A stretch of DNA of 64,000 nt from Emiliania huxleyi CCMP1516 (Eukaryota), in NCBI RefSeq assembly GCF_000372725.1, contig NW_005201154.1, positions 118,843 to 182,842 of the forward strand, in the 5' to 3' direction. Under the pieces are notes generated by a model. It did no database searches. It was not told where the DNA came from and worked only from the letters and a program-made list of their open reading frames with translations. A program made the position numbers and the translations under genes. Shown here piece by piece: positions 8,826 to 58,900 of the stretch. The first letter of the stretch is position 1. Every line of letters begins with the position of its first letter.

Positions 8826-11299
8826 ATGCTCGCCGCCGTCCTACCCCTCCTCCGCTACGCGCCGCGGGTGGGCGGCCGCCCCTCGCTGCACCGCTCCTCG
8901 CTGCACCGCGCGGTGTGCTCGTCGGCCGACGGCGGCTCCTTTGCGGAGCTCGGTGTGTCCGAGCCGCTGCTGGCGGGCCTGCAGGGGTTGGGGTTCGAGG
9001 CGCCGACCGAGATCCAGCGGCAGGCGTGGCCGTTCGTGCGCGGCGGCGGCGACGTGGTGCTGCTCGACGAGACCGGGTCGGGCAAGACGATCGCCTACGC
9101 GCTGCCGGTGCTGCAGGCGATGCTCGAGGAGAGGGAGGAGCTGGTCGCAGAGGCGAGGAGGGCGCGCGGCGAGGAGGGCGGCGGCGAGGAGGGGCGGCTG
9201 GTGCTGCCGCGCGTGCCGTCGCAGGCGCTGCTGCTCGCGCCCAACCGCGAGCTCGTCGTGCAGGTCCACGCGACGGTGCGAGCGCTGCTCGCCGGCCTGC
9301 CTCCGTCGCTGCAGCTGCGCTCGTCGGCGCTGACCGAGGACAGAGGGGTCTCCGCGCCGCGCCGTGGCTGCCGCGCCCGCGTCCCGAGGCGTGCGGGCTG
9401 CGTGCCTAGGCGGACGCCGACGGCGAGGCGGACGTCCTCTGCGCCACCCCCGCCGTCGCCCTGCGCTCGTGGCGCGGCTCGCGGGGCGGGCGGTTGCGTG
9501 GGCCGGGGAGAGTGAGGTTCGGGGGTGGGTGGTGGGAGGGCGGGGAGGGTGCGGCGGCGCTGCTCACGCGCTCCGGCCTGCGAGCAGGTGGGCTGTGCTC
9601 GACGAGGCCGACCAGCTCCTCGCGGGCTCCTTCAAGCCGGCGAGCCGCGAGCCGGGTCGCGCGGCGGCGGCTCTTTGCCGTCCTTGCCGGACGGCGCGTG
9701 GCCAGCCTCCCTTGTAGGCGATCCGAGACCGGTACGAGGTGGAGCAGATCTGCGCCGAGCTCAAGCGGGCGGCCAAGGCGTCGGCGGCCGAGGAGGGCTC
9801 GATGGCGGGGAGGGACCTCGCACGCGCTCGCATCGGATTGCACCGCGTCGGCAGCGACGCGGAGCGGCAGGCGGTGAGGGACGCGGCACGCGTGGCTCTC
9901 ATTGTGAAGTGAGCACTATGGATGAATGAATGTGCGGCAGGCGGCGAGGGACGCGGTACGCATGGCTCGCGCAAAGACGTGCGGGCGCCGGGCGGCCCCG
10001 CGCCGCACGCAGTGTCCGGCTCGGAGGCGCGTCTCTGGGCGTTGGTCTGTAGGTGGGCGGGCCTCAAGCAGTTTATGCTGGTGGGCGCCACCATGCCGAA
10101 CGCTGGCACGAAGAACGTCCACCTGCACGTCGAGCGGAGCTGGCCGGTGAGCGAGCGGGAGGCGGAGCGCCCGTCGTTGTTCGGAGCGTCTTCCCCCCTG
10201 CACCGCCTCGGAGCCTGCCTGCAGGCGGCGGCGTGGGTGCGCACCGGCCGCGAGCACCACTCGATCGGCCCTCGGCTGCGTCAGTTCTTCGTGCGGGTGC
10301 GCCGAGACATCGCCGAGATGTCGCCGAGACATCGCCGAGATGTCGCCGGGATGTCGCCGAGATGTCGCCGAGATGTCGCCGAGATGTCGCCGAGATGTCG
10401 CCGGGATATCCCCTGTTTGCGTCAGTTCTTCGTGCGGGTGTGCGGGCCGAGACCGAGCGCCGCGCAAGCCGCCGGCCGTGCCTCGGAGGCCGTGAGAGCC
10501 GTCTCGGAGCCGTCTGGGATAGGTGGGCGAGGAGAGCCGCGCCGCCGCGCTCCGCGCCGCAGTGCAGCAGGGGCCGCAGGGCCGCACTCTGGTGTTCGCA
10601 AACACGCTCGCCACGGCGGAGGCGGCCGAGGCGGAGCTGCAGGGCGTCCGCACTTGCGCCGCCTTCCACAACGGCCCGCCAACCCCCCCCCCCCCCCTCT
10701 CCCTCCCTCCCTCCGCTCCGCCCCTGCCCCCGCCTCTCGCCCGCGCGGCGCAATCGGCGCGGTATGTGGATCGGCACACTGAGCCCGGCCGGCTGTGCGC
10801 GCGTCTCGAGCAGGCGTGGGTCCGGAGGAGCGGCGGGAGCACCTCGCAGCCTTCCAGCAGGGGGAGCTGCCCGTCCTCGTCTGCACCGGCCTCGCCTCGC
10901 GCGGGATCGACTTCACCGACGTGAGCCCGCCCGTGCGAGAGGGGAGGGGGGGGGAGGGAGGGAGAGAAAGGGGGCGAGAGCGGCGGCACCCCCCTCACTC
11001 CCTCCCCGCTCTGCGGCGCTGTGCAGGTTGCCCACGTGGTGCAGTACGAGATGGCGGCCAACGCGGTCGAGTACATCCACCGCGTGGGCCGCACCGCGCG
11101 CGCCGGCCGCTCCGGCGTCGCCACCGCCCTCTACACCGACCTCAGCGCCCCGCTCGTCGACGCGCTGCGCTCCGCGTCCGAGCGGGGCGACCCGATCGAC
11201 GCCCTCTTCTCGCGCCGGCGGCTCTTTCGGAAAAAGTTCAACAAGGCGAGGGAGTATGAGCTCGGCCAGCGTGCAAGTCAGGCGGGCAGGCAGTCCTAG
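8826..11299 (+). CDS. DEAD-box RNA helicase, RH22-like, probably organellar; multi-exon
   Basis: Q motif FAELGV..GFEAPTEIQ, DETGSGKT, LAPNRELVVQ, VLDEADQLL, FMLVGATMP, LVFANT, VLVCTGLASRGIDF, YIHRVGRTARAG. Confidence 0.9.
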
Positions 11300-11348
11300 G
11301 GGCTTTGTCACGAGTTCAGAGCTGGGGTGAGAGACTGCAGACTCTCGT

Positions 11349-11805: not shown

Positions 11806-11971
11806 ACTCTCTCCTACCTGCACGCGCCGCGGCGACACGGAACATACACCCATCTCGCTCTCTGGCGTCTGGGTCCCTGCAGTTTCTTAGCCGGTCCCAG
11901 CACTCGCGGTCCGCCGATGCCGGAGCCTCGCCCCCTCCTGCCCGCACTGTCTGCTGGGCTTCGCCAAGCCC

Positions 11972-13861: not shown

Positions 13862-14729
13862 GGCTGCGGCGTCGGCTGCGGCGGCGGCTATCGAGGGGGG
13901 GATAGCGTCGATCGGTCCGTCGGGGGACTGCCTGATTGGATTATAAGCGGGATCTTCACGATCGGAACACAGAAAAACCAACCTCAGTAAGTGCTCCAAG
14001 TGCTCAGTGCTAGAAGTGTTCCGCCGGGCTGCGCCAGCACAAGAGAGAAGAAGAACCTCGACAGCTCACTGCCGGGCGCGTATGCTATGCATGGAGGCGG
14101 CGTCATTGTCCTGGGCCGAAGCAGGCGCCACATTGCGTCCCCGGTGACCAAAACAGCACTCACGGAGCAGCCCCGCGATCGCCCCCCCGCCTTCCTATTC
14201 TTTTTTTCTAAAATTCCGGCTGAGAGTTGCTGGAAATTCACTTTGTTTTTTTTTTTGAGCTTAGCCTTCGATGTTATGAAACAAACGCAAGGCGGACATG
14301 GCATATCGCTCTCGGGCCCACAGACATCCCGCACACCCGCCGCCCCCGCGCGCGCCCCACCTCGGCCGGGAGAAAGGGGAGTGACAGTTTGGGATGGACA
14401 GCCCGAGTATGTTGAGTCCTGGCTCAACAACGCAGGGAACAAGAGGGGGTGGTCCGGCTCACAAGTCCAGCTCACGCGCCTCGAGCTTAACATCTACCGC
14501 ACTGGTCACTTCCGCCCCCTCGCTCCCAACCCATCCACCTCGCCCCGGGCCGCGCCGCGCGATCTCGGGCGATCTCGCGCGATCTCGGGCGATCTCGCGC
14601 TATCTCAGGCGATCTCGGGGCCGCGCCGCGCTATCTCGGGCGATCTCGGAGCGTCGCTCGCGCGGCGTCACACCTGCTCAAAAAAGGAAGGAGGTTGGAG
14701 GCAGGAGGTCGCCCCTTTGTTTTTTTGCG

Positions 14730-17281
14730 ATGTCAACCCTCTTCGCTCCGCTGCTCTTCGCGCCACTGGCGCTGTTGCTCGCGCTCCTCTCCGCGTGCCT
14801 GCTGTCTCTGCGCCTGCGTGTCGTCAGGGCTCGCCGCGTGCTCGGCGTGCTCCACCCATACGCCAACGACGGCGGCGGCGGCGAGCGCGTCTTGTGGGTC
14901 GCGCTCCGAGAGCTGCTTGCGCGGCACCAGCTGCAGGGCTGGCGTGTGGTGGTCTACACGGGCGACGCGGCCAGCGACGACGAGATCCGCGCGGCCACGC
15001 TGTCGCGCTTCGGCGTCGACGTGCCCGAGAGCGTCGAGTTTGTCCGCCTCCGCAGCCGGAGGGTGGTCGAGCCGTCCAGCTACCCGGTGGCGACGCTGCT
15101 CGGGCAGGCGGTGGGCTCGCTGCTGCTGCTGCTGGAGGCGCTGGCGCGGGCGCCGCCGAGCGTGCTGCTCGACACGACCGGCTATGGCTACTGCTACGCC
15201 GCCGCCAAGGCGCTCGGCGTGCGGCGGGTCGGCTGCTACGTCCACTACCCGATCCTCTCCTCTGAGATGGCGCGAGATGATGCGAGATGATGCGAGATGG
15301 CCCGAGATGGCGCGAGATGATGCGAGATGACGCGAGATGATCCGCCGGCTGCGTCCACCGCCTGGCACTCTCCTCTGGGATGGCGAGGGCGCTGGCGAGG
15401 AGGAGCTGGCGCCAGAGAGCTGGCGCCGGAGAGCGGGCGCATGACACGCTCCAGGACACGGCAGAGTGCCGACAGGTGGACCTGTCCTGGACCTGTCCTG
15501 GACTAGCCTCCAAAGGTGGGCGCAGTCGAGCGGCGCGCCGGCGCGCACAACAACGCGGCGCGCATCGCCAGCTCCCCCGCCCTCACCTCGCTCAAGCTCG
15601 CCTACTACCGCGCCCTCGCCGCTGCGTACGGCGCCTCTGGCGCCGCTGCGGACGTCGTCGTCGCAAACGGCGAGAGCGGCGCGCGGCCTCAGATGCAGCG
15701 AGCGAGACTTGAGGCCTGGCCTCCTCCCCCCCCCTCCGCCAGGCTCGTGGACGGCGGGCCACCTCCGCTCGCTCTGGCGCGGTGCGGCCCGCCGGCCGCG
15801 GAGGTCGCTTACCGCCATGAATGACTGGTCAATGAGTCATGTAGCTGTTGATTGTACAGGCGCGGCCGGCCGCGTGGCGGTCGCCTTCCCTCCGTGCGAC
15901 TCGGCGGCTCTCCTTGTCCATCCTCCTTCTTCATGATTGATGAGAGGAGTGATGAGTGATAGGTGCGATACGGCGGCTCTCCGCGCGCTGCCGCTCGAGC
16001 GCCGCGCCGCGCCCCTCCTCCTCCTCTCCGTCGCGCAGTTCCGTCCCGAGAAGGAGACGCTCGCCCTCCCCGATAGAGCGGGCTGTGCTGCCGGGACGCC
16101 ATGGGCCTGAGACGCCCCCTCCTCCCCTCCACCCCTCCCTCCCCTGCCCCGAAGGACCACGCACTCCAGCTGAAGGCTTTCGCCGCCCTGCTCCGCCGCG
16201 CCTCCGCCTCCGCCGGCGACACGCCGCCGCCGCGCCTCCTGCTGGTGCTCGCAGGCGCCGCCGCCCCCTCTCCCGCTGCCCCCTACCTGTCTCTGGCCGC
16301 CCCTCCCCCCCTCCCTCCCGCCGCCCCCCTCTNNNNNNNNNNNNNNNNNNNNNNNNNNNNNNNNNNNNNNNNNNNNNNNNNNNNNNNNNNNNNNNNNNNN
16401 NNNNNNNNNNNNNNNNNNNNNNNNNNNNNNNNGGTCGTGGCCGAGGACCGCCATGTACCGAGGTTTTTTTTTTCCATAAATTGTATCTCCCCGAGTTGTT
16501 TGTTTTTTTGGTTCTGGCACAGTTTTTCTCCCGAAAAAAAAATGGGGGGGGGAAACGGGGGGGGGGGTGTTTTGTGTCGGAGCCCCCCCCCAAAGGGGTT
16601 TTTTCCCCCCCCCCCCCTGAAAAGGTGGGTCTCCCCCCGAATTGGGAAGTCCCCTTTGGCATCGGGTTGGTGGAATTTATGGCCCGAGGGGGGGGGCTTT
16701 TTCCACCCCTCTTTCCCCGGGGGGGAGTTTTTGCGCGCAGATCAACCACCCGACCGCTGGCCCTTTTCCCTGGTTTTTCTTCGCCTTTGACTGGGGGGGG
16801 GCCCCCCCCCCCCCCCCCCGCGCCGCGCGCCTCTTCCCACAGGCGTCCCTCCCGTCGCGCACGCCTCCGGAGGCCCGCTGCTCGACATCGTCAAGCCGCG
16901 CGGAGAGGCTGCCGAGCCGTAGCCGAGATTCAGCCGTGATACCCGAGATGTGCCCCGAGATGCAGCCCAGATGCAGCCCCAGATGCAGCCCCAGATGCAG
17001 CCCCAGATGCAGCCCCAGATGCAGCCGGAGAGGGGCGGAGAGGGAGGGGCCGCCCCGCAGCCAGCCCAACAGGAACCCCCCCTCCCCGCGGCAAGGTTGG
17101 GCTGCTCGCGGCGACAGAACGCGAGTACACCGAGGCCCTCGCGCAGCTGACGCTCGCGCCGCGCGCCGCGCAGCGCCGCGCCGCCATGGCGGCCGCGGCG
17201 CGCGAGTCGGTGGCGACCCGCTTCTCCGACGAAGCCTTTGCGCAGGCCTTCTGCGCGGAGGCTGGCCGGCTGTTGGCCTGA
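14730..17281 (+). CDS. ALG11: GDP-Man:Man3GlcNAc2-PP-dolichol alpha-1,2-mannosyltransferase; multi-exon, interrupted by an assembly gap
   Basis: N-terminal TM helix; HPYANDGGGGERVLW, DTTGYGY, YVHYPIL, KLAYY, SWTAGHL, VAFPPCD, AQFRPEK|DHALQL, C-terminal RFSDEAF. Confidence 0.9.
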
Positions 17282-17625: not shown

Positions 17626-18604
17626 TCACTGCCCCAGCCCCCACGCCTCGATCTTCTTGGGCAGCAGCTGGTTCTGCTGGTCGCCGTGGCCCAGCTTGCC
17701 ATGGTATCCATGGCCCCAGCTCCAGACACCGCCGTCGGCGGTGATGGCGAGGCTGTGCGCGGGTCGGCGGTGATGGCGAAGCTGTCGTGCGCTCCAGCCG
17801 ACACGGCGACGACGCGCCGGGCAGTCAAGGCCTCAATCTTCTTCGGCAGCAGCTGGTTCTGCTGGTCACGTGGCCCAGCTTGCCATCCTCGCCATCGCCC
17901 CAGCTCCAGACAGCGCCGTCGGCGGTGATGGCGAAGCTGTCGTGCGCTCCAGCCGAGACAGCGACGACGCGCCGCCCAGCAAAGGCCTCGACCTTCCTCG
18001 GCAGCAGCTGGCCCTGCTCGTCGCCGTGGCCCAGCCTGCCAAAGCTTCCATGGCCCCAGCTCCAGACAGCGCCGTCGGCGGTGAAGGCGAGGCTGTGGCC
18101 GCCTCCAGCCGACACACTCACGGCGCACTCGTCACCCAGCGTCGACGGGAGGCGGGTCAGCGTGTTGAGCCGGGTCACGCCCTCGCCGTGGCCGAGGAGC
18201 CCTGGCGTCCAGTCCTCGGCCTTCCCACACGACGACAGCCGCCCCTCGCCGTCGATGAAGAGGCTGTGCCGAGCGCCTCCCGCAGCCCTTGCCGGCGCGT
18301 TGGACTCGCGCAAGAGCGCGGCAAAGCACAGCCAGCGCACGGCGCAGCCCTCGCCCTCTGGTTGCGCCGGCAGCTCGAAGCCGCGCTCTTGCGCCCACAA
18401 GCGGATGCCCTCCTCCGCAAGCGAGGCGTGGAAGAGGAGCGAGACGGCCGCGACGCGAGCGATGTCGATGGGGCTGTCGAAGCGAGAGAGGGCGCGCTCG
18501 AGGAGCTCCCTGGGGAGGTCGAGGAGGCGGGCGGGCGGCGGCGCGTCCGGCGAGGGGGCGGCGGTGGAGGAGGAGGCGAGGCGGCGCGAGCGGCGGGTGG
18601 ACAT
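17626..18604 (-). pseudogene. F-box-like + RCC1-repeat gene, frameshifted and shortened paralog of 54566-55843
   Basis: LLDLPRELLERAL; repeats VSAG..HS..TADGAVWSWG.G..G.LGHGD. 1-bp loss near 17868 (CTGGTCACGTGG versus CTGGTCGCCGTGG) and a short internal duplication at about 17730-17790. Confidence 0.7.
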
Positions 18605-23429: not shown

Positions 23430-24010
23430 GCGGGCTGGGTGCGCAAGGTGAGGAGCAACTTGAACCGCTTCGCCGCGCTCGGCCTCAAGCTCACCCTCTC
23501 GGAGATCGACATGCGTGTGCGCGACTGGCCCGAGGAAAGCAGAGCAACACGGCAGCGCATCGCCTACCGCGCGCTGCTCGCCGTCGCGCTGTCGCACCCG
23601 GCGATGGAGGGGATCACCTTTTGGGGCTTCACCGACAAGTACTCCTGGATCCACTACCGGTGCCGCCCCTCTGCCGTCGCCAGACACCAGCCCGCTCCAA
23701 GACACTCTCGGACGCAATGCCACCCTCAAGGTTCGGCGCCGACGAGCCGCTGCTCCTCGACAACGAGTACGGCCTCAAGCCGGCGTATATGGGCTGCAGC
23801 GACGGCGCGCTCGACGCGCTGCTCGCCGTTCGGTGCTTTGACGGGTGCGCACAACAACTTTGGCGCGGGATACACGAGACATGCAGCGACCCGAGGTGCC
23901 AGGGCTGCGCGGCTTGCTCGCCTCCCTCCGCGCCCTCCACTCCTCCGCCGCCCACACCCCCTCCGAGTACCTCGCCGCGCTGGGTCGTCACCTATATCGG
24001 ATGCTTCGTC
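23430..24010 (+). pseudogene. C-terminal fragment of a GH10 xylanase-like gene followed by a Cys-rich module and Pro-rich linker
   Basis: NLNRFAALGLKLTLSEIDMR, GITFWGFTDKYSWI, PLLLDNEYGLKPAY. The N-terminal two-thirds of the barrel is not found upstream. Confidence 0.7.
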
Positions 24011-25434: not shown

Positions 25435-26178
25435 AAGCTGAACGTGTCGTACAAGCCGCAGAAGATCGCGCCCTCCTTCGACGGCACGGTGCGCGAGCTG
25501 CTGCACAAGAAGATCCGCGAGGCCTTCATCCACCCGCAGTTCAACACGGACGTGATGAAGCCGATGCTCATCGAGCGGTTGCTCGACCAGGAGGTGGGTG
25601 GAGCCGCCGCCCCCCCCCCCCCCCCACCCCCTCCGCGGGTGGAGAGCTGTGAAGGTCGGCCCCTTCTGAGTCCCCTCCTCACACCGAGTGGCGCGTCACG
25701 GACAGGTCAAGTACCTCTCGGGCGGGGAGCTGCAGCGCGTCGCGCTCGTGCTCGCGCTCGGCGCGCCGAGAGTCGCCGAGAGTCGCCGAGAGTCGCCGAG
25801 AGTCGCCGAGAGTCGCCGAGAGTCGCCGAGAGTCGCCCCGTGCCCGCGCTCGGCACTGCCTCCTCCCCTCCCCGGCACTGCCTCCTCTACCTCTTCTGCA
25901 GTGGCGAGTTGCTGGCTGGTGTGGCCAGGGAAGCCCGTGTGCAATGCCCCGTGTGTGGTGTGTCCCGCGAGTGCGGTGTGCCCCGTCGTCCGTGCCAGGA
26001 CCGTGTGTCCCAGCGACTGACTGGTGTGTGCAGGGAAGCCCGCCGACCTGCACCTGATCTCCCCGTATCTCCCCCACACCTCCCCGCATCTCCCCTGCAG
26101 GGAAGCCCGCCGACCTGTACCTGATCGACGAGCCGTCCGCCTACCTCGACTCAGAGCAGCGCATCTCCGCCTCAAAGG
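25435..26178 (+). CDS. ABCE1: ABCE1/RLI1 internal fragment on a small contig between two gaps
   Basis: [65 protein letters not shown]. Confidence 0.9.
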
Positions 26179-26637: not shown

Positions 26638-26795
26638 CGCGACTGGCCCGAGGAAAGCAGAGCAACACGGCAGCGCATCGCCTACCGCGCGCTGCTTGCC
26701 GTCGCGCTGTCGCACCCGGCGATGGAGGGGATCACCTTTGGGGCTTCACCGACAAGTACTCCTGGATCCACTACCGGTGCCGCCCCTCTGCTGTC
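26638..26795 (+). pseudogene. Second near-identical copy of the GH10 fragment exon, with a 1-bp frameshift
   Basis: Matches about 23520-23680; ACCTTTGGGG versus ACCTTTTGGGG. Confidence 0.7.
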
Positions 26796-28770: not shown

Positions 28771-28987
28771 NNNNNNNNNNNNNNNNNNNNNNNNNNNNNN
28801 NNNNNNNNNNNNNNNNNNNNNNNNNNNNNNNNNNNNNNNNNNNNNNNNNNNNNNNNNNNNNNNNNNNNNNGTGTGTTGCCTCAATGTTCTTTTAATGCGC
28901 GCCCCCGCCGAAATACACTGCAAATACACCATACACGCGAGATGCGTCGGCAGCGACGCGCACGACCTCTTAAGAAGCACCGTGTCG

Positions 28988-29205
28988 TTAGGATTAGGGT
29001 TAGGGTTAGAATTAGGGTTAGGGTTAGGGTTAGGGTCAGAGAGCGTTCAAGCCGTTGTGCAGCTCCTAAGAGAATGGTCCGGTTTGGGCCGAAACCAAAT
29101 GGAGGAATCAGCGGTCCATCGACACGAGCTCTCGGTGAATGCTTTGGGTTCTTCGGGCTAGGGTTAGGGTTAGGGTTAGGGTTAGGGTTAGGATTAGGGT
29201 AAGGG
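28988..29205 (+). repeat. Two short interstitial telomeric (TTAGGG)n tracts separated by about 120 bp of unique sequence
   Basis: TTAGGG units with TTAGGA/TTAGAA variants at about 28988-29035 and 29158-29205. Confidence 0.9.
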
Positions 29206-29295
29206 GTTGGTTGTCGTCGCGCGCTCTCGATATCTGGCTAGACAGAGACACAGCAGCAGAGGCGACCCAAGCGACACATCAGAGCATGGATGCTT

Positions 29296-38705: not shown

Positions 38706-40957
38706 ATGCTCAGATCTGCAGCGTTGCTCAGCCTTCTCGCTCCCGCGTCGGCGGTGGTGCTCACCGCAGCGCGCGCGCCTCCTCGCGGCGCCGCCGCTTC
38801 GGCCGCCTCAGCGAGCTGCGCTCTGGTGGGTCGGCCGCCGCGGCTGGCAGCGGCGAGCCGTTTGCGGATGCAGGTGCAGCAGGAGGAGGGGTCGAGCGCG
38901 CCGTCGCCTTACGACGAGTTCCTGCTGGCGGACGTGAAGACGGGCGAGCGGAGCCGCATCGGGCTCGACGAGAAGGAGAAGCTCTACCTCGACTGCCTCG
39001 ACGCCTTTTACAACGACGAGAAGCCGGTGCTGGGCGATTCCGAGTACGAGACGCTCAAGACGGACCTGCAGTTCGAGGGGTCTCGGATCGCGGCCTTCTC
39101 GAAGGACGAGATCAAGTACCTCATCGCCAACAAGCGCTTCGTCATGGGCAAGCCCTTCCTCTCTGACAGCGAGTACGACTCGCTCCGTCGCAAGCTCAAG
39201 ACAGCGGGCTCGCCGGTGGTGCTGCACGAGGCGCCTTCGTGCAAGGTGGACGGGACGTGCCGGTTCGACATGAAGGTGGACGAGGGCAAGCAGCGGCTCC
39301 TCTACCTGCCCGGCACGCTCGGTGAGCCCCCCTCCCCTCCCCCTCGCCGGCTGGGCCTGTCGCGAGCCGGTGCGCGGACGGCTGACGGCCGGCGGCGGGC
39401 TGCGATGCAGGCGGACTGATCCTGGCGTGCGAGGTGGAGTTCTGGACGCTGCACATCGACCCCCTCCTCTCGATCGTCCTTGGAGCCCTGCCCGCCTACC
39501 TCTTCGGCGTCTGGTTCACCGAGAACATCTTTGCCCAAAAGCCGTGCGCCTCGCCGCCCCCCCCCCCCCCCTCTGCCTCCGCCTCCGCCTCCGCCTCCCG
39601 CCTCCGCGTCTGCGTCCGCGGCCCCGCCCCCGTTGCAGCGCAGCCGCCTCTGCCTTGCGCGAGCCCTCCTCCCTGCCCCGCGGCCCCTCGGCCCCGACCT
39701 TCAGCCCCGACCCCCAGGCTCGTCGCCTCCACCGCTTGCCCGAGCTGCAACTCCTTGCTGACCGTCTACTTTGGCGACCTGTTTGGCGTGCAGGCACCTC
39801 ACCACACACTCCTCACCACACACTCCTCATCACACACTCCTCACCACACACCTCACACCTCACCTCACACCTCACCTCACCACACACCTCCCACACACAC
39901 CTCCCACACACACCTCACCACACACCTCACCACACACCACACACACACACACACACGCACACACGCACACACACCTCCCACACACCTCCCACACGCACAC
40001 ACACCTCACCGCACACCTCCCACACACACCACACACACACCCCGACCGACCTCCCAGTGGACAGCTCTCCGCCCGACCGCCCCAGAGGAGTCGTCAGCCA
40101 CACCTGACGCCACGCCGCCCTCGCCTGCAGCGCGACGGCATCATGGGGCCTGCAAAGCAAAAGGAGGCGGGCTCGAGCCAGGCGCCCCCCCCCCCCCCCC
40201 CTTTCAAAAAAAAGAGAGTCGTGAGATCGCCCGAATCACCCGCCCTCGTCCTGGTGGCTCACCCGCCCTCGTCCTGGTGCCTCACCCGCCCTCGTCCTGG
40301 TGCCTCACCCGCCCTCTTCCTGCTGCCTCGCCGCCGCAGGTGGGGGTCAAATGCCCCGACTGCACGGGCCGTCCCCCCCGCGGTGTGTGGGNNNNNNNNN
40401 NNNNNNNNNNNNNNNNNNNNNNNNNNNNNNNNNNNNNNNNNNNNNNNNNNNNNNNNNNNNNNNNNNNNNNNNNNNNNNNNNNNNNNNNNNNCAAAAACCC
40501 AAAAAAACAACCCGGGGCGGCCTCCCAGGGGAAAATTTTCCCCCCGCCCGCCCCAAAGGGGTTTTAAACCCCCCCGGAGGCCCCGTTGCCCTCCCCTGAA
40601 GGGGGGGGGAAAAAGGGGGCCTGAAAAAAAAAAAGGGGGGGGGGTTGACCCAGGGCCCCCCCCCCCCCCCCCTTTTCACACAAGAAGGAGTGGGGAAATT
40701 CCCCGACTCACCCGCCCTGGTCCGGGTGCCTCCCCCGCCCTCGTCCTGTTGCCTCCCCCCCCCAGGGGGGGGTAAAAAGCCCCGAATGCAGGGTCGGTTT
40801 CCCCCCCCCCCCCCCCCCCGGGGGGGGGGCGCCCCCCGGCCCTCCTCACCGCCCCCGCCACCCCTCACCCCCCCCTCACCCCCCCTCCCCCGGCCAGGCC
40901 AAGCTCATCGCTGACCGGACGACGATGCGCATCGAGTCGAACAAAGTGGCCGCCTAG
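38706..40957 (+). CDS. PGRL1: PGR5-like protein 1 (thylakoid cyclic electron flow); multi-exon, gap inside an intron
   Basis: Signal plus transit leader; EKEKLYLDCLDAFYNDEKPVLGDSEYETLKTDLQFEGS, GKPFLSDSEYDSLRRKLK, CKVDGTC, two TM segments, ACPSC, KCPDC. Confidence 0.88.
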
Positions 40958-44512: not shown

Positions 44513-47500
44513 ATGCTCCAACGCGCTGCGGCTGCTGCCGCCCCAAAACGCTGGTGGCTTGCAAACAGCGGCTCCGCACCGCTCCTCGCGCCGGCCTACG
44601 CAGCACACCAGCGTTCGGTGCCGCGGCTGCCCATCCCGCCGCTCGGCGAGACGCTCGAGCGCTACCTGCGAGCAGCACAGCCGCTGCAGACGCTGGAGGA
44701 GCACGCAGCCACGCGGGCGGCAGTCGCACAGTTCTTCGATACCGACGGGCCCGGGCTCCAGCGCCTCCTCGAGGAGGCTGACGCCGCACTTCCGCACGAC
44801 TCATCGTACCTCGAGTCGCTGTGGTACCGACTCGCCTACCTCGGGCCCCGCTCTCCGGTGCCGATCCACGCCAACCCGTGCTTCACCCTCGCCCCGCCCT
44901 CGCGCCACACGCCGCCTCTGGAGCGCGCCGCCGGGCTCCTCGCCAAGGCGGCACAGTGGGCGCACGCGCTACGGACCGGCACCCTCACCGCTCCGACTGC
45001 CAAGGGCGGCTCACCGCTGTGCATGGCGCTGCTTCCCGCCGTGCTAGGGACGGCGAGGATCCCCCGCCAAGGCTGCGACGTGCTCCACTCCGCCTCCGCG
45101 CCGGACGCCGCGGCGGTCTGCAGGCGCGGCGAGTGGTACTCCGTCCCGCTCTTCGACGCGACAGGCGCACCGCTCACCTTCGTCTCACCCTCGTCAGAAC
45201 AAGCACCAGGATGCCTCAGCACGAGGGGCATCGTTCTCCGCAGGCGCACCGCTCCCGCCCGCGACTCTCCTCGACTCGCTGAAGCAGCTGCCGCCGGCCG
45301 CGGCGCACGCACCCGCAGTCGGGGCGCTGACGGCGTGGCGGCGCGACGAGTGGGCGGAGGCTCGCGCCGCGCTCTCCAGCTCGCCGCAAAACGAGTCGTC
45401 TCTGAAGGCCATCGACGAGGTCAGGAGTCTCCAGCCCGCCGCTCGCGTATCGCTGCGCTCGCTCGTCCTCTCCACCCCTCACCCCCACCCCTCAACCCCC
45501 ACCCCTCACCCCCACCCCTCACCCCCCACCCCTCACCCCCACCCCTCACCCCCCACCCCTCACCCCCACCCCTCACCCCCACCCCTCAACCCCCACCCCT
45601 CACCCCCACCCCTCAAACCCCCACCCCTCACCCCCCCACCCCATCACACCCCCAGGCTCTGCTCGTCCTCTCACTCGACGACTCCGCGCCAGCCTCGCCG
45701 ACCGAGCTCGCCCGCACGTCCCTCTGCGGCGACGCGACGGCGCCCGACAGCCGCGCACCGCCCAGCTCGCACAGCCCCTCCGCCTCTCCCCTCGCCGCAC
45801 TGAGGCGTGTGTGTGCGCCGCTCGACCACCCCACAGGCGCGGTGGTACGACAAGCTCCAGCTGCTCGTCTTCGCCGACGGACAGGCGGCCATCAACTTCG
45901 AGCACGCGCCGCAGGACCGATCTCTCCCCATATCTCCCCATATCTCCCCATGTATCTCAACTTCGAGCACGCGCCGCAGGACCGAGATCTCTCCCCATAT
46001 CTCCCCATATCTCCCCATATATCTCAACTTTGAGCACGCGCCGCAGGACCGAGATCTCTCCCCATATCTCCCCATATATCTCAACTTCGAGCACGCGCCG
46101 CAGGACCGAGATCTCTCCCCATCTCTCCCCATATCTCCCCATGTATCTCAACTTCGAGCACGCGCCGCAGGACCGAGATCTCTCCCCATATCTCCCCATA
46201 TCTCCCCATATATCTCAACTTCGAGCACGCGCCGCAGGACCGAGATCTCTCCCCATATCTCCCCATATCTCCCCATATCTCCCCATATATCTCAACTTCG
46301 AGCACGCGCCGCAGGACCGAGATCTCTCCCCATATCTCCCCATATCTCCCCATATCTCCCCATATATCTCAACTTCGAGCACGCGCCGCAGGATGGGGCG
46401 CAGGTGGTCTCCCTCGCGTCGCACTTGGCCGAGGCGGGCGAACACGAGGCGGGCGAACACGAGGCGGGTGGGCGAAGGCCGGCGGCTCGAGCGGCGCCGC
46501 CACGCCGGCTGCGCTTCGACGTGTCTCCAGAGCTCGGCGCTAAGGTTGAGGCGGCGCGAGCCTGCGCTGCGGCCGAGGCGGCGGCGGCTCAACTTGGGCG
46601 CCGCCACGCCTCCGCCTCTCGAGCTGGGCACCGGTCGCACACCCCTTGTTCAGGCGGCGGCCCTCGACCTCGACACCGCCACGGTGCGCTCCGTCTCGGC
46701 TAGCTGGGCCAAGGGGCGCGGCGTCTCGCTGGACGGTTGGGTCGTGGCCGCTCTCTCGAGCTGGCGCGCAGAGCCCGCCGAGAGTGGGCGAGATGTGGCG
46801 AGAGTAGGCGTGGTGCAGCTCTCCTTCCAGCTGGCGCACAGGCGGCTGACCGGCGGCCTGTCGAGCACGTACGAGGCTTGCTCCACGCAAAGCTTCTCGC
46901 ACGGCCGCACCGAGGCGGCCGCAGTGCCGTGCTTGCTGTCGCATTTGCCTCGCCACTCCCATTCGCGCTCTTGTTGGCCAAAGGTGATCCGGCCGGTGAC
47001 GCGCGAGTCGGCGGCGCTGCTGCAGCGGCTCGAGGAGGGAGACGCCGACGCGGCGGCGCTGCGAGCGGCGCTCGACGCTCAGCGTCGTCTCGTGGCCGAC
47101 TGCCAGCGAGGGAAGGGGCACGGGCGGGGCACCGCCTCCTTCCTCGACCTTTCCTGGACGTTTCCTGAACGTCTTGCTGTAGGCACGGGCACGAGCGTCA
47201 CCTCCTCGCGCTCCTCGTCCAGGAGCGGGAGGCGGGCTTGCCCGCCCCCTCCTCTAGACCCTCTCCTAGACCTCTCCCGGAGCCGTCCTGTAGGCGGAGG
47301 AGGCGGGGATGCCCACGCCCGGCCTGTTTCGCGACTCCGGCTGGGCCACCGTCACTGCGTCCCTCGTCTCAACTTCGGGGTTGCGCTCCCCCGCGCTCGG
47401 CTGGTTCGCATTCGGCCCGGTGGCGCGGCAAGGGGTCGGCCTCGGCTACTTGCTCTCCCCCGACGGCGTCGCGCTCTGCGCCACTTCCTTCCGCGGCAGC

Positions 47501-49555: not shown

Positions 49556-49606
49556 ACCCATACCGCGTTGGTGTCCAGTCCGAGCCTGACCGTTCTTCAC
49601 CTTCCT
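49556..49606 (+). repeat. 51-bp dispersed repeat, copy 2
   Basis: ACCCATACCGCGTTGGTGTCCAGTCCGAGCCTGACCGTTCTTCACCTTCCT. Confidence 0.85.
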
Positions 49607-51222: not shown

Positions 51223-54200
51223 TCACTCGCGGCGCCTCTTCTTGGCGGCGGTGGTCCAGCTGCCGTCCACACCGTGCTCCTCCGCCAGCCGCTGCCTCAC
51301 GTCGTCGGGCGAGTGGAGGAAGAAGTGCTGCCGCAACGCGGCCGGCGGCGTGAGCGCGGCGGCGCCGCCCCGGGGAGAGAGCAGCGCCTCCCACACGGGC
51401 GAGACCGGAGCGACCGTGAAGGGCGTCGGCGGCGCGTCGACTGGCTCCGTGGCGGTGGCGGGCGGGCGCGGCGGCGGCTGCAGCAGCGCGGGCCACGTCT
51501 GAGAGCGAGTGACGCGCGGCACGCTCGACTGCGCGCTCAGCCGCGAGCGACGCGCCGCCCCACGCGTGGGCTGGGCGTACCACGCGACCAGCAGCACCAG
51601 CCGCTGCTCGGCGATGCTCTGCCCGCCTAGGACACGTCCGTGACATGTCCGTGACATGTCCCACAGCCGCTGTGCTCGGCGATGCTCTGCCCGCCGCCGC
51701 CCTTCGCCGTGGCTCTGCCCCGCCCACGGCCGCTGCGGGTGCGGTCGGCACGGGAGGCCCGGCTGCGCGCTGCACCGCCGCCACCACAGCCGCGGCCTGC
51801 AGCGCCATACGCCCCGCCGCCAGAGCCGCGGCCCGGAGCCTCTGCGCCGCAGGGTGGGCCGCCGTTGAAGGCGCCCGGCAGGACCCCATGCAGCCGGTCG
51901 CCTGTGGGGCATGTCGTGGACGTGTCGTGGACGTGTCGTGGACGTGTCGTGGACGTGTCGTGGACGTGTCGTGGACGTGTCGTGGACGTGTCGTGGACGT
52001 GTCGTGGACGTGTCGTGGACGTGTCGTGGACGTGGCGGGAGGGCCCGTGCAGCGTGTCGCCTTTGAAGGTGAGGAAAGAGCGGCTTGCGGGGTGGACGAG
52101 GTACGCGCGCGAGCCCGCCTACGACATGTCCGCGACATGTCCACGACATGTCCACGACATGTCCACGACATGTCATGCACGCGCGCGAGCCCGCCTGCCC
52201 GCCGAGCGTCTCGTCGATCACCTGCGCGCCAGGCGCGGCCTCGGTCAGCTCGCTCCTTCGTGGGCCAGCCCAGCCCCGTACCGCCTGCCGCCTGGTCGAG
52301 GACCATATCTCCCCATATCTCCCCACATCTCCCCATATCTCCCCGTACCGCCTGCCGCCTGGTCGAGGACCATATCTCCCCATATCTCCCCACATCTCCC
52401 CACATCTCCCCGTACCGCCTGCCGCCTGGTCGAGGACCATATCTCCCCATATCTCCCCATATCTCCCCATATCTCCCCGTACCGCCTGCCGCCTGGTCGA
52501 GGACCATATCTCCCCATATCTCCCCACATCTCCCCATCTCTCCCCGTACCGCCTGCCGCCTGGTCGAGGACCAAGCTCTCGGGCGCCCCGCCGTCGGAGA
52601 TGGGGGGAGATGTGGGGAGATGGGGGAGATATGGGGAGATGTCGCACCAGGGTCGGGTCCCCGGCGTCAGAGAGGTAGACGACGGAGGAGACGAGCGGGT
52701 GGAGCACCTACTTCGACCACTCTTCCTGTGTGTATGGAGAGGCAGACGACGGAGGAGACGAGGCGGGGGAGAGGACCTCTCCTCCCGCCTCGAGCGCGCC
52801 CTCCTCCACGTCGTAGTGGAGCTCGTGCCCGACGCCTGTTCGCAGCGAGGAGGGGTGAGGGGGCGCGGGCCACACGGGGGCACGCAATCGTGCAGCCCGC
52901 CCCCCCCTCCACGCCTCTCCCCGCCCCGCGGGAGTGCACCCACCACTCGGCGGACTGCGGCGCCACCTCGCCGGCCAGCTCGCCGGCCAGCGGCGCCAGC
53001 CGGCGCACCAGCCGCGTGACCACATCCTCGTGCGGCGACGGCGGCGAGGCGAGGTCGACGTACCACGTGAAGTAGCGCTTCTCTGCCGAGGCCGACGCGT
53101 ACCGCGTCTCGCTCCAGTACGCGGCGCCTACAGGACATGTCTCGGACGTGTCGTGGACGTGTCGTGGCCGTGTCGCCTCGCTCCAGTGCGCGGCGCCAGG
53201 AGCAAAGGCGCGGCGCAGCTGCTCGCACGTCTCTCGAGGGACAGCGTCCGGGTACACGCGGACCTGTACTCTCGGGTGATCTCGGGTAATCTCGGTTAAT
53301 CTCGGGTAATTTCGAGGGACAGCGTCGGGCACACGCGGACCGGGCAGCCGTCGCGCAGCCCCGAGCCGGCTGGAGGCGGCACCTTGCGCGCAGGGACCCT
53401 CGCCGCCCGCCACACGCACGGAGAGAGGCGCCACCGGAAGCCGAAGGAGCGGATCGCGCCCTCCGCCTCGGTGGCGTCCCAGCTGCGAGGCGAGGAGGGC
53501 GGCGTGCATAGTCGCGAGGCCGACGCAGCGGCGGCGCGGCTCGTACACAAACGCGTCCGCCCAGTCATACTCGCCCTCCTCCTCGCCCTCCTCCTCGCCC
53601 TCCTCCGCCTCCGCCTCCGCCTCCGCCCCCGCCTCCGCCTCCTCCCCGCCCTCCTCCCCGCCCTCCTCCCCGCCCTCCTCCCCGCCCTCCTCCCCGCCCT
53701 CCTCCCCGCCCTCCTCGCAGAGGGACCCTGGGAGCCTCGACACTCTCCGCCACAGAGACAACGCCTCCTCGGCGTCGCCGCCGTCGCGCCGCAGCAGGGC
53801 GAGGCTCATCATCGCGGGCGCGTTCTGCGGCCACGCGGCGAGTGAGGCGCGCAGCAGCGCCTACGGGCAGGGCGAGGGTGGCTCCTCTCGCAGAAGTCCT
53901 CAGCCAGGCAGCCATCCGACCACAAGTCCAGTCCGCCTCTGCCTCTCGTGCTGGTGCCGACGCCCGGGCGAGGAGCGGAAAGCCGAGCGCCGCGGCCTTG
54001 TCCAGCTGGAGCTCGGCGCGGCCGTTGAGCGCGGCGCTCAGGAGCAGGCTCGGAGGAGGCAGCGGGAGTGCCGCGTCCCGTGGCCAGGCGCACGGCGCTG
54101 GGACACGGCCCTCTCCGCCGCCGATGGCGTCGGCAAGAGCCTGCAGTTTCGTGTCTGCCCGAGTGTCGCCAGCCTCGCACGCGTCCTGTGCGTCGAAGAA

Positions 54201-54565: not shown

Positions 54566-55843
54566 TCACAGCCCCGGCGCCCACGCCTCGACCTTCTTGG
54601 GCAGCGGCTGGTTCGACAGGTCCTCTCCGTGGCCAAGGCAGCCGCTTTCGCCCAGACCCCAAGCATAAACAGCGCCATCGGCCGTGGTGGCGAGGCTGTG
54701 GAATGCTCCAGCCGACACAGCGACGACGCGCTGGCCAGCCAAGGCCTCGACCTTCTTGGGCAGCAGCTGCTCCTGCGTGTCGCCGTGGCCCAACTCGCCC
54801 CAGTCTCCAACGCCCCAGCTCCAGACGCTGCCGTCGGCGGTGAGGGTGAGGCTGTGGTAGCCTCCGGCCGACACAGCGACGACGCGCTGGCCAGCCAAGG
54901 CCTCGACTTTCTTCGGCAGCAGCTGGCGCTGCTTGTCGCCGTGGCCCAGCCGGCCACCGCCTCCAGCGCCCCAGCTCCAGACGGCGCCATCGGCAGTGAT
55001 GGCGAAGCTGTGGAATGCTCCAGCCGACACAGCAAGGGCGCGCTGCCCAGCCAAGGCCTCGACCTTCTTCGGCAGCAGCTGCGTCTCCTCGTCGCCGTGG
55101 CCCAGCTCGCCGTTCCCTCCCCAACCCCAGCTCCAGACGGCGCCATCAGCGGTGAGGGCGAGGTTGTGGTACTCTCCGACCGACACAGCGACGACGCGCC
55201 GCCCAGCAAAGGCCTCGATCTTCTTGGGCTGCCACTGGTTCTGCTGGTCGCCGTGGCCAAGCTTGCCGCAGCCTCCGTCGCCCCAGCTCCAGGCGGCGCC
55301 GTCGGCGGTGATGGCGAAGCTGTGATAGGCTCCAGCCGACACGCTCACAGCGCGCTCGCCGCCCAGCGTCGACAGGAGGCGCGTCGGCGTGTTGAGCTGC
55401 GTCACGCCCTCGCCGTGGCCAAGCAGCGCGGGCATTGGATTGTAGTCCGGAGCCGAGCCGCACGACGAGAGCTGCCCCTCGCCGTCGATGAAGAGGCTGT
55501 GCCGTTCGCCTGCGGACACCCTCGCCGGCGGGTTGGCCTTGCGCAGGAGCGCGGCAAAGCACAGCCACCGCACGGCGCAGCTCTCGCCCTCTGGCAGCGC
55601 CGGCAGCTCGAAGCCGCGCCGTTGCGCCCACAAGCGGATGCCCTCCTCCGCAAGCGAGGCGTGGAAGAGCAGCGAGACGGCTGCGACGCGAGCGATGTCG
55701 ATGGGGCTGTCGCAGCGAGAGAGGACGCGCTCGAGGAGCTCCCTGGGGAGGTCGAGCAGGCGGGCGGGCGGCGGCGCGACTGGCGAGGGGGCGGCGGCGG
55801 CGGCGGAGGAGAGGCGGCGCGGGCGGCGGTGCGGCATGGACAT
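54566..55843 (-). CDS. Intronless F-box-like + RCC1-repeat (beta-propeller) protein, 425 aa
   Basis: LLDLPRELLERVL; six-seven VSAG..HS.A.TADG.VWSWG.G..G.LGHGD repeats. Confidence 0.9.
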   Translation of the reverse strand: MSMPHRRPRRLSSAAAAAPSPVAPPPARLLDLPRELLERVLSRCDSPIDIARVAAVSLLFHASLAEEGIRLWAQRRGFELPALPEGESCAVRWLCFAALLRKANPPARVSAGERHSLFIDGEGQLSSCGSAPDYNPMPALLGHGEGVTQLNTPTRLLSTLGGERAVSVSAGAYHSFAITADGAAWSWGDGGCGKLGHGDQQNQWQPKKIEAFAGRRVVAVSVGEYHNLALTADGAVWSWGWGGNGELGHGDEETQLLPKKVEALAGQRALAVSAGAFHSFAITADGAVWSWGAGGGGRLGHGDKQRQLLPKKVEALAGQRVVAVSAGGYHSLTLTADGSVWSWGVGDWGELGHGDTQEQLLPKKVEALAGQRVVAVSAGAFHSLATTADGAVYAWGLGESGCLGHGEDLSNQPLPKKVEAWAPGL

Positions 55844-55993
55844 CGCGAAGAAAAAAGAAAATGCACTCGCATGAACAGCTCAGGAGCAACTGCAACCTTA
55901 AACTCTCCCTCACACGGGCTCGAAAATAAAGAAAGCTTAGTGCTGGTCGGCAGCGCCGCCTGGGCTCCGTCGAGCTCTGCTAGCTGTCGCCTA

Positions 55994-58900
55994 ATGGAGT
56001 GCCGCCGCGTCACGCTCTGGGCCACGCTCGCCCTCGACCTCGCCGCCGCGCTGCTCCTCGGCACCGCCACCGATCCGGCCCGATTCTTTCGCGACGTCTG
56101 GCCTCACCAGCGAGCGCTTTTTGGCGAGACCACCCTCGACCTCATCGCCCTCGCCCTGCTGCGCGTGGTGGTGGTCGTCGCGCTGCTGCTCGCCACTGCA
56201 GGCCGGGCCGCCAGAGTGGCCTCCTCGGCGGCTGCCGCCTCGCCGCCGCTGCTCGAGCCGCTCCAGCTCAACGGCACTAGCGAGCCGCAGCACCCGGTTG
56301 GCGACAAAGGTGGGTGGTGGAGGGCTGCCGTGACGCCCGTGCGGTGCAGCGGCGCGCTCCTCGCGCTGACGGTCGGCTACAGCGCGCTCAAGGCCCTCTT
56401 CCGCATGCTCCAGTCCGGCCTCGGCGACGGCTCTTCCTCGGGCTCTCTCCCGACCGGTGGGACGGAGCCGGCCGAAGTCTGGTTCTGGCTCCTAGAAGCA
56501 GAATACGTGTTCTTGTATCCCAACTAAGCCCGAGAGGGCCACGTATTCAGCCGTCTTCGGCCGTGTTCCGCTGTATTCACTGTATTCTTCTCCGTTGTAC
56601 TCACGCGGTGCTCTGAACACGCTGCACAATACCGCATTCCCGCCCTGATGTTGGCGTATTCAGCACGTAGGTTCTGGCTCACGCTGGCGGCGGGGTGCGT
56701 GTCGTCGAGCGGAGAGCACGTCCTCTGCAGGCGGCTGCTCCGCCGCGCCGCGGCCGCCGGCGAGGGGGGGGCGGCGGCCCGGGCGGGCGGCAAGCAGAAG
56801 AAGAGCGACGACCCCGCCGAGGCTGCCAAGAAGGCGGGAGCCCAGCGGGAGATATGGGGAGATATGGGGAGATATGGGGAGATACGCCAAGAAGGCGAGA
56901 GCCCAGTGGGCCCGGAGGCGGGTCGGTGGCGGGTCGGTGACGCGCGGCGGGTGACATGTGCACATGCGCGACGTGTGCCGCAGGCGTACCTCGAGCGGAC
57001 TGGAGATATGGGGAGATATGGGGAGATATGGGGAGCATGCGACGTGAGCCGCAGGCGTACCTCGAGCGGACTGGGCCGAGGCAGGTCCAGTCCGTGCGCG
57101 CCATCTTCGCAATGGTGAGAAGAGAAGAGAAGAGAAGAGAAGAGAAGAGAAGGTCCAGTCCGTGCGCGCCATCTTCGCAATGGTGAGAAGAGAAGAGAAG
57201 AGAAGAGAGTGCGCGCCATCTTCGCAATGGCGAGAAGCAGCACTGGCGCCGGAGGAGGGCCGTGCTGGAATAGCAACCCATGCGGAGTCACAATTGCTCA
57301 GGTGAAGCCGGACTGGCACCTGATGGCTTTCGCGTACGCGTCACTCGCCATCGCCGCCGCCGGGGACACGTCGATCCCCTTCCTGTACGGCCAACTCATC
57401 GACGCGATCGCAATCTCGCGCGACGTGGGCAAGTTCCAGCAGTACATGCTGCTGCTCGTCGGCACCGCCCTCGTCACCGGCGTCTTCACCGGATTCCGAG
57501 GCTCCACCTTCATCGTCATCGGCGGCCGCTTCTCAGTGCGGCTGAGGCAGCGCCTGTTCGCCTCGCTGCTGCGGCAGGAGCTCGACTTCTTCTCCGCCGT
57601 CCGCACGGGCGACATCACCTCGCGCCTCTCTGCAGACTGCCAAAAGGTGGGCGACCAGGTGCAACTCAACGTCAACGTCTTCCTGCGCTCCGTCATCCAG
57701 GCCCTCTCCCTCCCCTCCTCCTCTCCCTCGCCTCCTCCCGCCACCCCACCATCGACCCGCCACACCCTAACGAGCGCACGGCGGCTAATCCCCTCCTCGA
57801 GCGCCCGTGCTCCCCCTCTCACCACAAGCTCCCCGAAAAGGGGGCCGTCGCAGCTTTCTTTTCTGTCTCGTCACCGCCCGCTCTCCCGCAGGTGCTGCTC
57901 GATGACGTGCCCATCTCTCGGCTCGACCCGGGCTGGTTCCACCGGCAAGTTGCGCTGGTGGGGCAGGAGCCCGTCCTCTTCGCCCGCTCGATCGAGGACA
58001 ACATCTGCTACGGCCTCGGCGAGCGCGGGGAGGGGCGGCCCTCGACAGAGGAGGTGCACGCCGCCGCGCAGCTCGCCAGGACATGTCCTGGACAGGTCCG
58101 TGACATGAACATGCACATGTACATGTACATGTCGCAGGTGCACGCCGCCGCGCAGCTCGCCAACGCGCACGACTTCGTCTCCGGCTTTGACCTCGGCTGC
58201 GGCGCGCCGGCTGGCACGAGGAGCGCCCCTTCACCACTGAGCGGCGTGAGCAGGCTTCGAGCTCGGCTACGCCACGCCCGTCGGCGAGCGGGGCGCGCAG
58301 TTGAGCGGCGGGCAGAAGCAGCGCATCGCGATCGCGCGCGCGCTGGTGCGGCACCCGTGTGTCGCGTGCTCTCTCCCCGCCATCTCCCCGCATCTCCCCG
58401 CATCTCCCCGCATCTCCCCGCATCTCCCCGCATCTCCCCGCATCTCCCCGCAGGTGCGGCACCCGTGCGTGCTGCTGCTCGACGAGGCGCCGAGAAGAGA
58501 AGAGAAGAGAAGAAAAGAGCGTGCTGCTGCTTGCGAGGCACCGAGCTGCAGCTATCTCCCCGTATTCCCCATATCTCCCCCTATCTCCCCTATCTCCCCG
58601 TATCTCCCCACATCTCCCGTGCTGCTGCTCGACGAGGCGCCGAGCTGCGGCGCGGGCGCGGGCGCGGAGTTGCGCCGCAGCCTCACCGCGGCCCTTTGCC
58701 GTCCGCTCAGGCGACGAGCGCGCTCGACGCGGAGAGCGAGGCGGTGGTGCAGGCGGCGATCGACTCCATGATTGCGCAGGGCGGGATGACGGTGGTCGTC
58801 ATCGCGCACCGGCTGTCGACCATCCGGAACGCCGACCGCATCTGCGTCGTCAAGGGGGGGAGGGTCGCCGAGGAGGGCCCGCACCACGAGCTCATGACAA

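Follow-up and report, generated by a model that had tools for sequence, protein, structure and literature searches.

Introns in a stretch of the Emiliania huxleyi CCMP1516 genome carry echoes of the exons beside them: a piece of sequence at the splice junction is present twice, and the two copies are separated by an insert that is in many cases an array of short tandem repeats. The stretch, referred to here as the window, comprises 64,000 nucleotides (nt) of contig NW_005201154.1 (assembly GCF_000372725.1, positions 118,843 to 182,842 of the forward strand), has a G+C content of 65% and contains six gaps of N. The echo architecture is real and widespread, and it is in part intron-creating. These copy-insert-copy introns, termed echo introns, probably stem from the repair of staggered breaks with templated synthesis of repeats, a reading that is preferred here with some reserve.

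Echo introns and their geometry

Candidate copy-insert-copy sites were collected by scanning the window for nearby direct repeats, and boundaries were set for 33 introns in five genes: a DEAD-box gene, ALG11, ABCE1, a carnitine acyltransferase and ABCB. The gene names rest on Pfam matches (DEAD, ALG11, Carn_acyltransf, ABC_membrane) and, for ABCE1, on a match in the PDB. Boundaries come mostly from RNA contigs in ABCB, from spliced alignment to homologous proteins in the DEAD-box, ALG11 and acyltransferase genes, and from inspection in ABCE1; the DEAD-box, acyltransferase and ABCB models gave open frames. Each intron was scored by the identity along the diagonal through both splice points, with the consensus bases excluded and mismatched donor/acceptor pairs as the null. 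A score of at least 8 was reached by 10 of the 33 introns and by none of 1,056 mismatched pairs. When gaps and any position within the intron were allowed, 18 of the 33 held a copy of flanking exon sequence at p ≤ 0.02 each. The plain introns of this set are mostly 69-81 nt in length. A sixth gene, on the minus strand, contains five further echo introns whose hand-set boundaries yield one open frame. The first-pass annotation, made from the letters alone, had described this arrangement in at least five unrelated genes; it was recovered in those genes and found in ALG11 in addition, and the comparison with control pairs in five genes bears it out.

Several geometries can be distinguished. In whole-intron echoes (geometry A) the duplicated piece is entirely exonic, and the insert is spliced out together with one copy. 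In geometries B and C the duplicate covers an existing donor (or acceptor), so that the spare copy is intronic. Several cases of geometry B overlie an older A: past the last donor copy, introns 10297 and 57115 match the next exon again (p = 0.025 and p = 0.021, respectively). Duplication of an existing boundary that merely lengthened an older intron was seen at 10277, about 15240, 25750, 26029, 56825, 56968, 57083 and 58468. The intron gain proposed in the annotation is accordingly supported for a part of the events, many of those in the window having only extended introns that were already there. Its description of the copies as an age series also stood, since they range from perfect to diverged across loci, as did the likeness of the geometry to a target-site duplication.

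The donors of the 33 introns are GC in 15, GT in 13 and GA in 5. The annotation had held that all three are tolerated; GT and GC donors were found in ABCB RNA, and the GA donors are predicted from protein homology rather than from reads. It had also assigned the splice sites to the copies. The donor does come from the first copy, but the acceptor AG lies inside the duplicate in 5 of 10 whole-intron echoes and is completed by the end of the insert in the other 5. The arrays are concentrated in spliced genes, 23 of the 27 in the window falling in six genes that cover 24% of it.

RNA and DNA support in ABCB

Splicing was observed in one gene, ABCB, to which the RNA support is confined; junctions in the DEAD-box, ALG11, ABCE1, acyltransferase and minus-strand genes rest on homology or open frames. 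RNA contigs X11 and X14, which come from two studies, join the ABCB exons and retain one copy at introns 56482, 58054, 58184 and 58346. The short exon between 56834 and 57301 is deduced from the 61 letters that separate the aligned pieces in X11, and the contigs do not span the 3′ boundary of intron 58487. At five ABCB junctions, DNA contigs X2 (an isolate with substitutions relative to the window) and X6 (a marine metagenome) continue without a break from exon sequence across the first copy and on into the insert. This comparison covers ABCB and the best 8 of a larger number of pieces per run, 61 further joints lying outside it.

Joints of an ABC paralogue in DNA lack intron 58346, although their short side spans only 21-23 letters. 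A homologue search with an ABCB exon returned nothing at 1e-30. Between 57701 and 57888, X11 and X14 carry 781 nt of ABCB coding sequence that is absent from the window, which reflects an assembly collapse or a haplotype deletion.

Repeat-flanked arrays in metagenomes

The architecture recurs in metagenomes. The sample comprises at least 122 loci chosen by one filler pattern, and all metagenome figures given here refer to the listed loci; the same pattern found no match in viral contigs. Among 140 unique 10-mer arrays, 112 have flanks of 60 nt. A direct repeat scoring at least 10 flanks 84 of these 112 (control, 3.7% of 1,113 pairs), with inverted repeats at 6 of 112, and a score of at least 12 is reached by 78 (control, 1.9%). 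The repeats abut the array in 73 of the 112; they measure 12-44 bp with a median of 23, the lower bound being set by the threshold, 30 are perfect, and the 73 together hold 69 mismatches in 1,789 nt. The inserts of these 73 events are 26-131 nt long in this filler-selected sample.

A survey by filler class covered 121 loci plus the window, locus L023 being left out as a subset of L024. Flanking repeats accompany 106 of 158 10-mer arrays, 49 of 131 telomere-like arrays, 21 of 44 other GAGAT-type arrays, 11 of 18 11-mer arrays, 2 of 3 GAGAA arrays and 24 of 231 unclassified arrays. They are rare at GC-rich triplets (1 of 83) and at mono- or dinucleotide runs (0 of 11), and the class controls gave 0-3 matches in 77-776 pairs. 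The motif AGG[TC] is present in 88 of 112 duplicates against 41-46% in the null, which draws on one sequence window where the test draws on two copies. The summed contig depth of the 10-mer in X2 was 638,016 against about 67 for single-copy sequence, a figure that is not a copy number.

An A/T-rich TTAATTAAT-type filler is found between direct repeats at L020, L103, L004 and L079. At L038, L048, L061 and L071, chains of overlapping duplications with differing end points and filler orientation occupy a single site, which suggests repeated breakage. Three candidate properties of the events were rejected. Breaks at clusters of methylated CpG do not agree with an observed/expected CpG ratio of 0.90 in the duplicates against 1.07 in their flanks; the duplicate starts are not pinned to splice sites, as AGG occurs throughout the first ~8 nt and also further in; and selection for frame preservation is not borne out by lengths that divide 25/23/25 among the residues modulo 3.

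Creation of introns

Reading frames bear on whether these events create introns. Of 180 held-out sequence windows, the coding model used for the metagenome loci placed 152 on the correct strand and in the correct frame, and 6 of 94 non-coding windows passed its cut-off. Among 52 metagenome events with filler-free flanks, the model called both flanks coding in 11, one in 25 and neither in 16. In 9 of the 11 events with both flanks called coding, the frame was restored when the insert and a single copy were excised (null, 16%), and for lengths that are not multiples of three the frame was open in 6 of 7 after excision and in 0 of 7 when the insert was kept.

Homologous open reading frames (ORFs) read across intron positions of the window as far as they extend, in ALG11 (P0002, P0014, P0017 and P0018) and in the DEAD-box gene (P0078 and P0083), and the same ORFs run visibly into introns of their own. 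Two ALG11 introns are exceptions. At 15779, P0002 has an insertion of 52 residues and P0014 leaves homology; at 16054, P0002 leaves homology by eye, a case that the script scored as read-through. Because 15894 is read across and 15779 is not, the former, a sharp echo, seems to be young, and the latter, which is decayed, seems older. ORFs P0017 and P0018, which are from another organism, continue into TPTP/PEPEPE tails that resemble translated telomere-like intron filler.

A proposed mechanism: staggered-break repair

Staggered-break repair, as put forward in the annotation, is the mechanism that fits best. Two nicks about 23 bp apart would leave 3′ overhangs that correspond to the duplicated piece, and synthesis on a repeat template would then start from one 3′ end or from both, as junction microhomology and polarity suggest; telomerase could supply the template for TTAGGG, whereas the 10-, 11- and 5-mers would more likely be copied from existing genomic arrays by an end-joining polymerase. 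Fill-in and ligation, for which CST/Pol alpha-primase offers a precedent, would complete the copy-insert-copy structure. If the event lands in an exon, splicing may recruit a GT or GC donor from the first copy together with an AG that lies in the second copy or ends the insert, and so remove exactly the insert and one copy, as seen in ABCB, with GA donors predicted by homology. If it lands on an existing boundary, it would only lengthen the intron, as the sequences of such sites indicate. Expansion of the array by slippage and decay of the copies would later produce the age series. The break, the polymerase and the timing are those we infer from the geometry and the junctions.

The junctions of 10-mer inserts share at least 2 nt of microhomology in 56% and 52% of cases on the two sides (null, 10-11%), and those of telomeric inserts at least 1 nt in 62% and 90% (null, 26-32%). 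The haptophyte telomere repeat is TTAGGG (PMC3622300). Head-to-head joins of telomeric repeats are G-strand-first in 19 cases and C-first in 1; they come from 13 metagenome loci, none of them in group A, the group that shares repeats with the window. Within 44 repeat-flanked telomeric inserts the counts are 8 and 0. Extension of both 3′ ends with TTAGGG would predict the G-first order, and copying of a G-rich overhang or RNA the reverse. The polarity would fit telomerase that acts on the 3′ overhangs of a break before fill-in of the CST/Pol alpha-primase kind. Telomeric doublets occur in 12 of 17 loci of group C, 7 of 8 of group D and 6 of 12 of group E. The inserts of the window consist of 10-, 11- and 5-mers and not of the telomere repeat, TTAGGG inserts being found in metagenome groups B-E and others. 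The 10-mer has 61 unit variants with a likeness of 35% within arrays and 18% pooled. We read this pattern as copying from existing arrays with local slippage, which would be expected to draw on varied donor arrays and so leave the units alike within each array, rather than as the product of one RNA template.

A number of observations weigh against this account. No significant echo was found in 15 of the 33 introns, and several whole-intron echoes (9871, 45165, 58184) have inserts that are not arrays. The homologous ORFs may be partly spliced transcripts. Two microhomology values of 15 are boundary artefacts, and microhomology is two-sided, so that telomerase is not singled out. Head-to-head joins of the 10-mer number 0 of either kind, none of the 48 group A loci has a telomeric doublet, and the two clear TTAGGG arrays of the window have no flanking repeat. 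Given the absence of doublets from group A, the probable source of the telomere evidence is a different organism, in which the same 10-mer is used side by side with TTAGGG. Random breaks leave unexplained the concentration in spliced genes noted above and the roughly three quarters of metagenome flanks that are coding-like (an estimate from the 52-event set). Neither an empty allele nor a polymorphism was seen for the ABCB introns among the best 8 pieces per run of X2 and X6; an empty allele would break these contigs, so none is apparent.

Two proposals of the annotation fare less well than the break itself. Addition of repeats by telomerase or a similar reverse transcriptase draws on the G-first polarity of the TTAGGG inserts, but these are probably from another organism, and the 10-mer of the window has no polarity. 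For a mechanism that is active at present, no sign in the form of an empty allele was seen among the listed pieces of X2 and X6. A broader proposal, in which haptophyte telomerase and, in the lineage of the window, a telomerase-like reverse transcriptase with other short RNA templates form a routine genome-wide factory that makes most lineage-specific introns, extending staggered breaks targeted to spliced genes with repeats that bring splice signals of their own, is possible but doubtful.

Alternative explanations

Simple tandem duplication, whether through slippage or through unequal crossover, of the ‘mirage’ type and with minisatellites growing between the copies afterwards, is an unlikely source of the echoes. 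It agrees with the 8-copy and 5-copy arrays, which amplify a single unit of copy plus filler, with 10-mer units that are closer within than between arrays, and with the boundary minisatellites known from amphioxus (PMC3087553). Yet the filler bears no relation to the sequence whose copies it separates, its families are common to several loci, it abuts both copies in 73 of 112 cases with microhomology at both joins, the TTAGGG polarity is 19:1, and ordinary microsatellites lack flanking repeats. Slightly less probable again is that the fillers are short tails of retrotransposons without long terminal repeats (non-LTR), or of RNAs like those of short interspersed elements (SINEs), laid down by target-primed reverse transcription with the copies as long target-site duplications. 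Variable duplication length and junction microhomology are compatible with target priming, and both were observed. In a 2025 Introner table, one small family of E. huxleyi is matched to Novosib-1_EmiHux. Against such tails, the filler families number at least five and are unrelated, telomeric inserts in head-to-head order require synthesis from both ends, and the inserts inspected showed no evident poly(A) or element body in common.

Derivation of every echo intron from DNA-transposon Introners, as decayed copies or as footprints, is improbable, being already excluded for most events. It holds for intron 56482-56670, Introners are listed for E. huxleyi, and repeats of the 10-mer family make up the interior of a second inverted-repeat element, near 6126-6390; but the repeat-filled inserts have no inverted ends, and their duplications of 12-44 bp are not of fixed length, compared with 3-9 bp for Introners (PMC9860276). 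An assembly artefact at low-complexity arrays, for which the six N gaps and the 781 nt of missing ABCB sequence might speak, is very improbable indeed. The same ABCB junctions recur in two independent DNA runs, the same architecture is present in separately assembled metagenomes, and divergence between copies is frequent. Repair of staggered breaks with templated synthesis of repeats is retained as the preferred reading.

Loci of the window

The echo introns and related sites of the window are as follows.

9864-9968, plus strand, DEAD-box: whole-intron echo with 35-bp copies (9864-9898, 9934-9968), intron 9871-9940 (GC..AG), A/T-rich insert that is not an array; the junction is joined in the 98%-identical protein P0076
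10277-10522, plus strand, DEAD-box: donor-spanning 23-bp duplication (10277-10299, 10418-10440) around an 11-mer array (10300-10417), overlying the older diverged echo intron 10297-10522
14547-14630, upstream of ALG11: 10-mer array with a 14-bp direct repeat, read from sequence, the sole repeat-flanked array seen outside the six genes
15240-15515, plus strand, ALG11: duplication across the donor, diverged, with arrays of 10-mers and 11-mers, intron 15270-15515
15779-15859, plus strand, ALG11: older intron with a diverged echo, at a position apparently common to homologues P0002 and P0014
15894-15982, plus strand, ALG11: whole-intron echo with 20-bp copies, intron 15894-15962 (GT..AG), AG from the insert
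25745-26126, plus strand, ABCE1: intron 25761-26100, donor-spanning duplication with a 10-mer array (25764-25837) and acceptor-spanning copies (26029-26059, 26096-26126), boundaries read from sequence
45162-45254, plus strand, carnitine acyltransferase: whole-intron echo with 14-bp copies, intron 45165-45243, non-repeat insert
45892-46393, plus strand, carnitine acyltransferase: 25-bp coding piece present eight times with 10-mer arrays between, putative intron 45915-46391 (GA..AG)
46578-47310, plus strand, carnitine acyltransferase: diverged echoes at introns 46578-46653, 46736-46807, 47112-47182 (putative GA donor) and 47223-47293 (putative GA donor)
51605-53419, minus strand, sixth gene: echo introns 53196-53128, 52776-52708, 52194-52119, 52060-51902 and 51694-51627, set by open frame; five-copy array 52274-52573 within intron 52647-52222; further sites at 51605, 52670 and 53234
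56481-56680, plus strand, ABCB: intron 56482-56670 with a 179-bp Introner-like element (56492-56670) and an 11-bp duplication
56825-57301, plus strand, ABCB: introns 56834-57054 and 57115-57301, donor- and acceptor-spanning duplications, 10-mer and GAGAA arrays
58052-58162, plus strand, ABCB: whole-intron echo with perfect copies of 27 bp, intron 58054-58137 (GT..AG), of which RNA retains a single copy
58184-58272, plus strand, ABCB: diverged whole-intron echo, intron 58184-58253 (GC..AG)
58345-58467, plus strand, ABCB: perfect 15-bp whole-intron echo with a 10-mer array, intron 58346-58453
58468-58710, plus strand, ABCB: intron 58487-58710, donor-spanning duplications, GAGAA and 10-mer arrays, boundaries from the open frame

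The direct-repeat sites of ABCB lie at 56825, 56968, 57083, 58052, 58345 and 58468, and the eightfold and fivefold copy numbers are those of the window as assembled. An ALG11 homologue is present in Prymnesium. The annotated labels of the DEAD-box, ABCE1, carnitine acyltransferase and ABCB genes held, while that of a 2-oxoglutarate (2OG) oxygenase for the minus-strand gene found no Pfam match among four exon pieces. From its motifs this gene is presumably 2OG-like.

The inverted-repeat element near 6126-6390 has nearly perfect arms of about 29 bp, an interior array of the GGGAGATAC-type 10-mer and no flanking direct repeat; it may link the filler family to a transposon. The TTAGGG arrays lie at 28987-29036 and 29155-29205, without flanking direct repeats, near a 182-bp tandem repeat (29295-29814). 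Two sequences occur twice (40230-40365 and 40702-40790; about 23525-23665 and 26640-26790), in each case with one copy just past an N gap, that copy being of low quality in the first pair, and are likely assembly duplications. A paralogous gene pair, at 17645-18116 and 54585-55424 (minus strand), contains coding repeats of 155-156 bp and is taken here to be RCC1-like.

An Introner-like element in ABCB

The annotation had set the echo introns apart from Introner transposons. This applies to the repeat-filled inserts, which have neither inverted ends nor a fixed short duplication, but not to intron 56482-56670. The ends of its 179-bp element match at 12 of 16 positions as an inverted repeat, and the intron takes its donor from the duplication and its acceptor from the element. 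Relatives were found at 17 metagenome loci with 71-96% identity. The 11-bp duplication matches at 11 of 11 positions in the window and at a mean of 6.8 of 11 in nine other copies (null, 5.0), at least 8 of 11 being reached in 3 of the 9 against 1.4% in the null.

The element is often accompanied by a filler-separated duplicate of its own 5′ end (L019, L026, L035, L041, L049 and L058, and further L064, L081, L094, L098 and L118), which represents either one inherited event or a hot spot. The idea that events are confined to the ends of the element was discarded, as L036 holds one inside.

Comparison with known systems

The closest likeness is to intron gain by break repair in Daphnia pulex (PMC4202315), where new introns have a direct repeat of the adjacent exon end and young introns undergo repeated secondary events. 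The Daphnia repeats measure 4-12 bp (33 cases) and the source of the inserts is mostly unknown, whereas here the repeats are 12-44 bp, the inserts come from few simple repeats and more than half of the tested introns are echoed. As in the AGGT duplication model of Rogers (reviewed in PMC3443670), the splice sites derive from duplicated exon and the coding sequence is unchanged. Unlike in that model, a foreign insert lies between the copies, and GC and putative GA donors are used; completion of the acceptor by the insert end in 5 of 10 cases means that the AGGT model alone does not describe these introns. That review counts 5 intron gains by break repair and 188 by duplication.

Interstitial telomeric inserts of mammals likewise place TTAGGG at breaks, with in-register microhomology and sometimes a target duplication (PMC2246262). 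Duplication is a minority there (6 of 130 rodent and 4 of 25 primate loci), and the covered text of that paper describes no intron creation; here 49 of 131 telomere-like arrays are repeat-flanked and some are head-to-head, although probably in another organism than that of the window. Tandem duplications made by CST/Pol alpha-primase at 3′-overhang breaks in mammalian cells (PMC8355091) explain a direct repeat from a staggered break, and the portion of that paper covered mentions no repeat insert and no splicing. Amphioxus ‘mirage’ minisatellites (PMC3087553) are tandem copies of exon-intron boundaries that splicing ignores and have been proposed as a route to new introns; they are described at few loci and, in the text covered, without foreign filler.

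For E. huxleyi, 653 Introners were reported in 2022 (PMC9860276) and three families in 2025 (PMC12130899). The donor from the duplication and the acceptor of its own make intron 56482-56670 Introner-like; the filler inserts differ in lacking inverted ends and a fixed duplication. The listed families, most of them without a class, have mean lengths of 37-70 nt and may in part be filler introns; the 179-bp element is longer and is set apart from them by length only. In full-text searches, whose scope did not extend to the 2013 genome paper or to most subscription papers, no description came up of simple-repeat inserts between long duplications as a common form of haptophyte intron. In the part covered, a haplotype-aware G. 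huxleyi preprint uses ‘intron’ once and neither ‘tandem’ nor ‘splice’. Each ingredient is known, from Daphnia break repair, the duplication model, mammalian telomeric insertions, mirages and Introners; their combination is a form of break-repair intron gain with long duplications and simple-repeat inserts.

Significance

The source of new intron sequence is still an open question, and a globally important algal group appears to hold many such events with a readable age series. Copied splice sites can mislead gene models and Introner calls in these genomes. Intronic repeats of 10-11 bp in E. huxleyi were reportedly noted by Read et al. in 2013, and the present account, if true, would explain them. 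The interstitial TTAGGG tracts of Calcidiscus (PMC13518057) would perhaps be explained as well. Echo introns would then constitute a large natural source of new introns, in which insertion bias, splice-site recruitment and decay become measurable.

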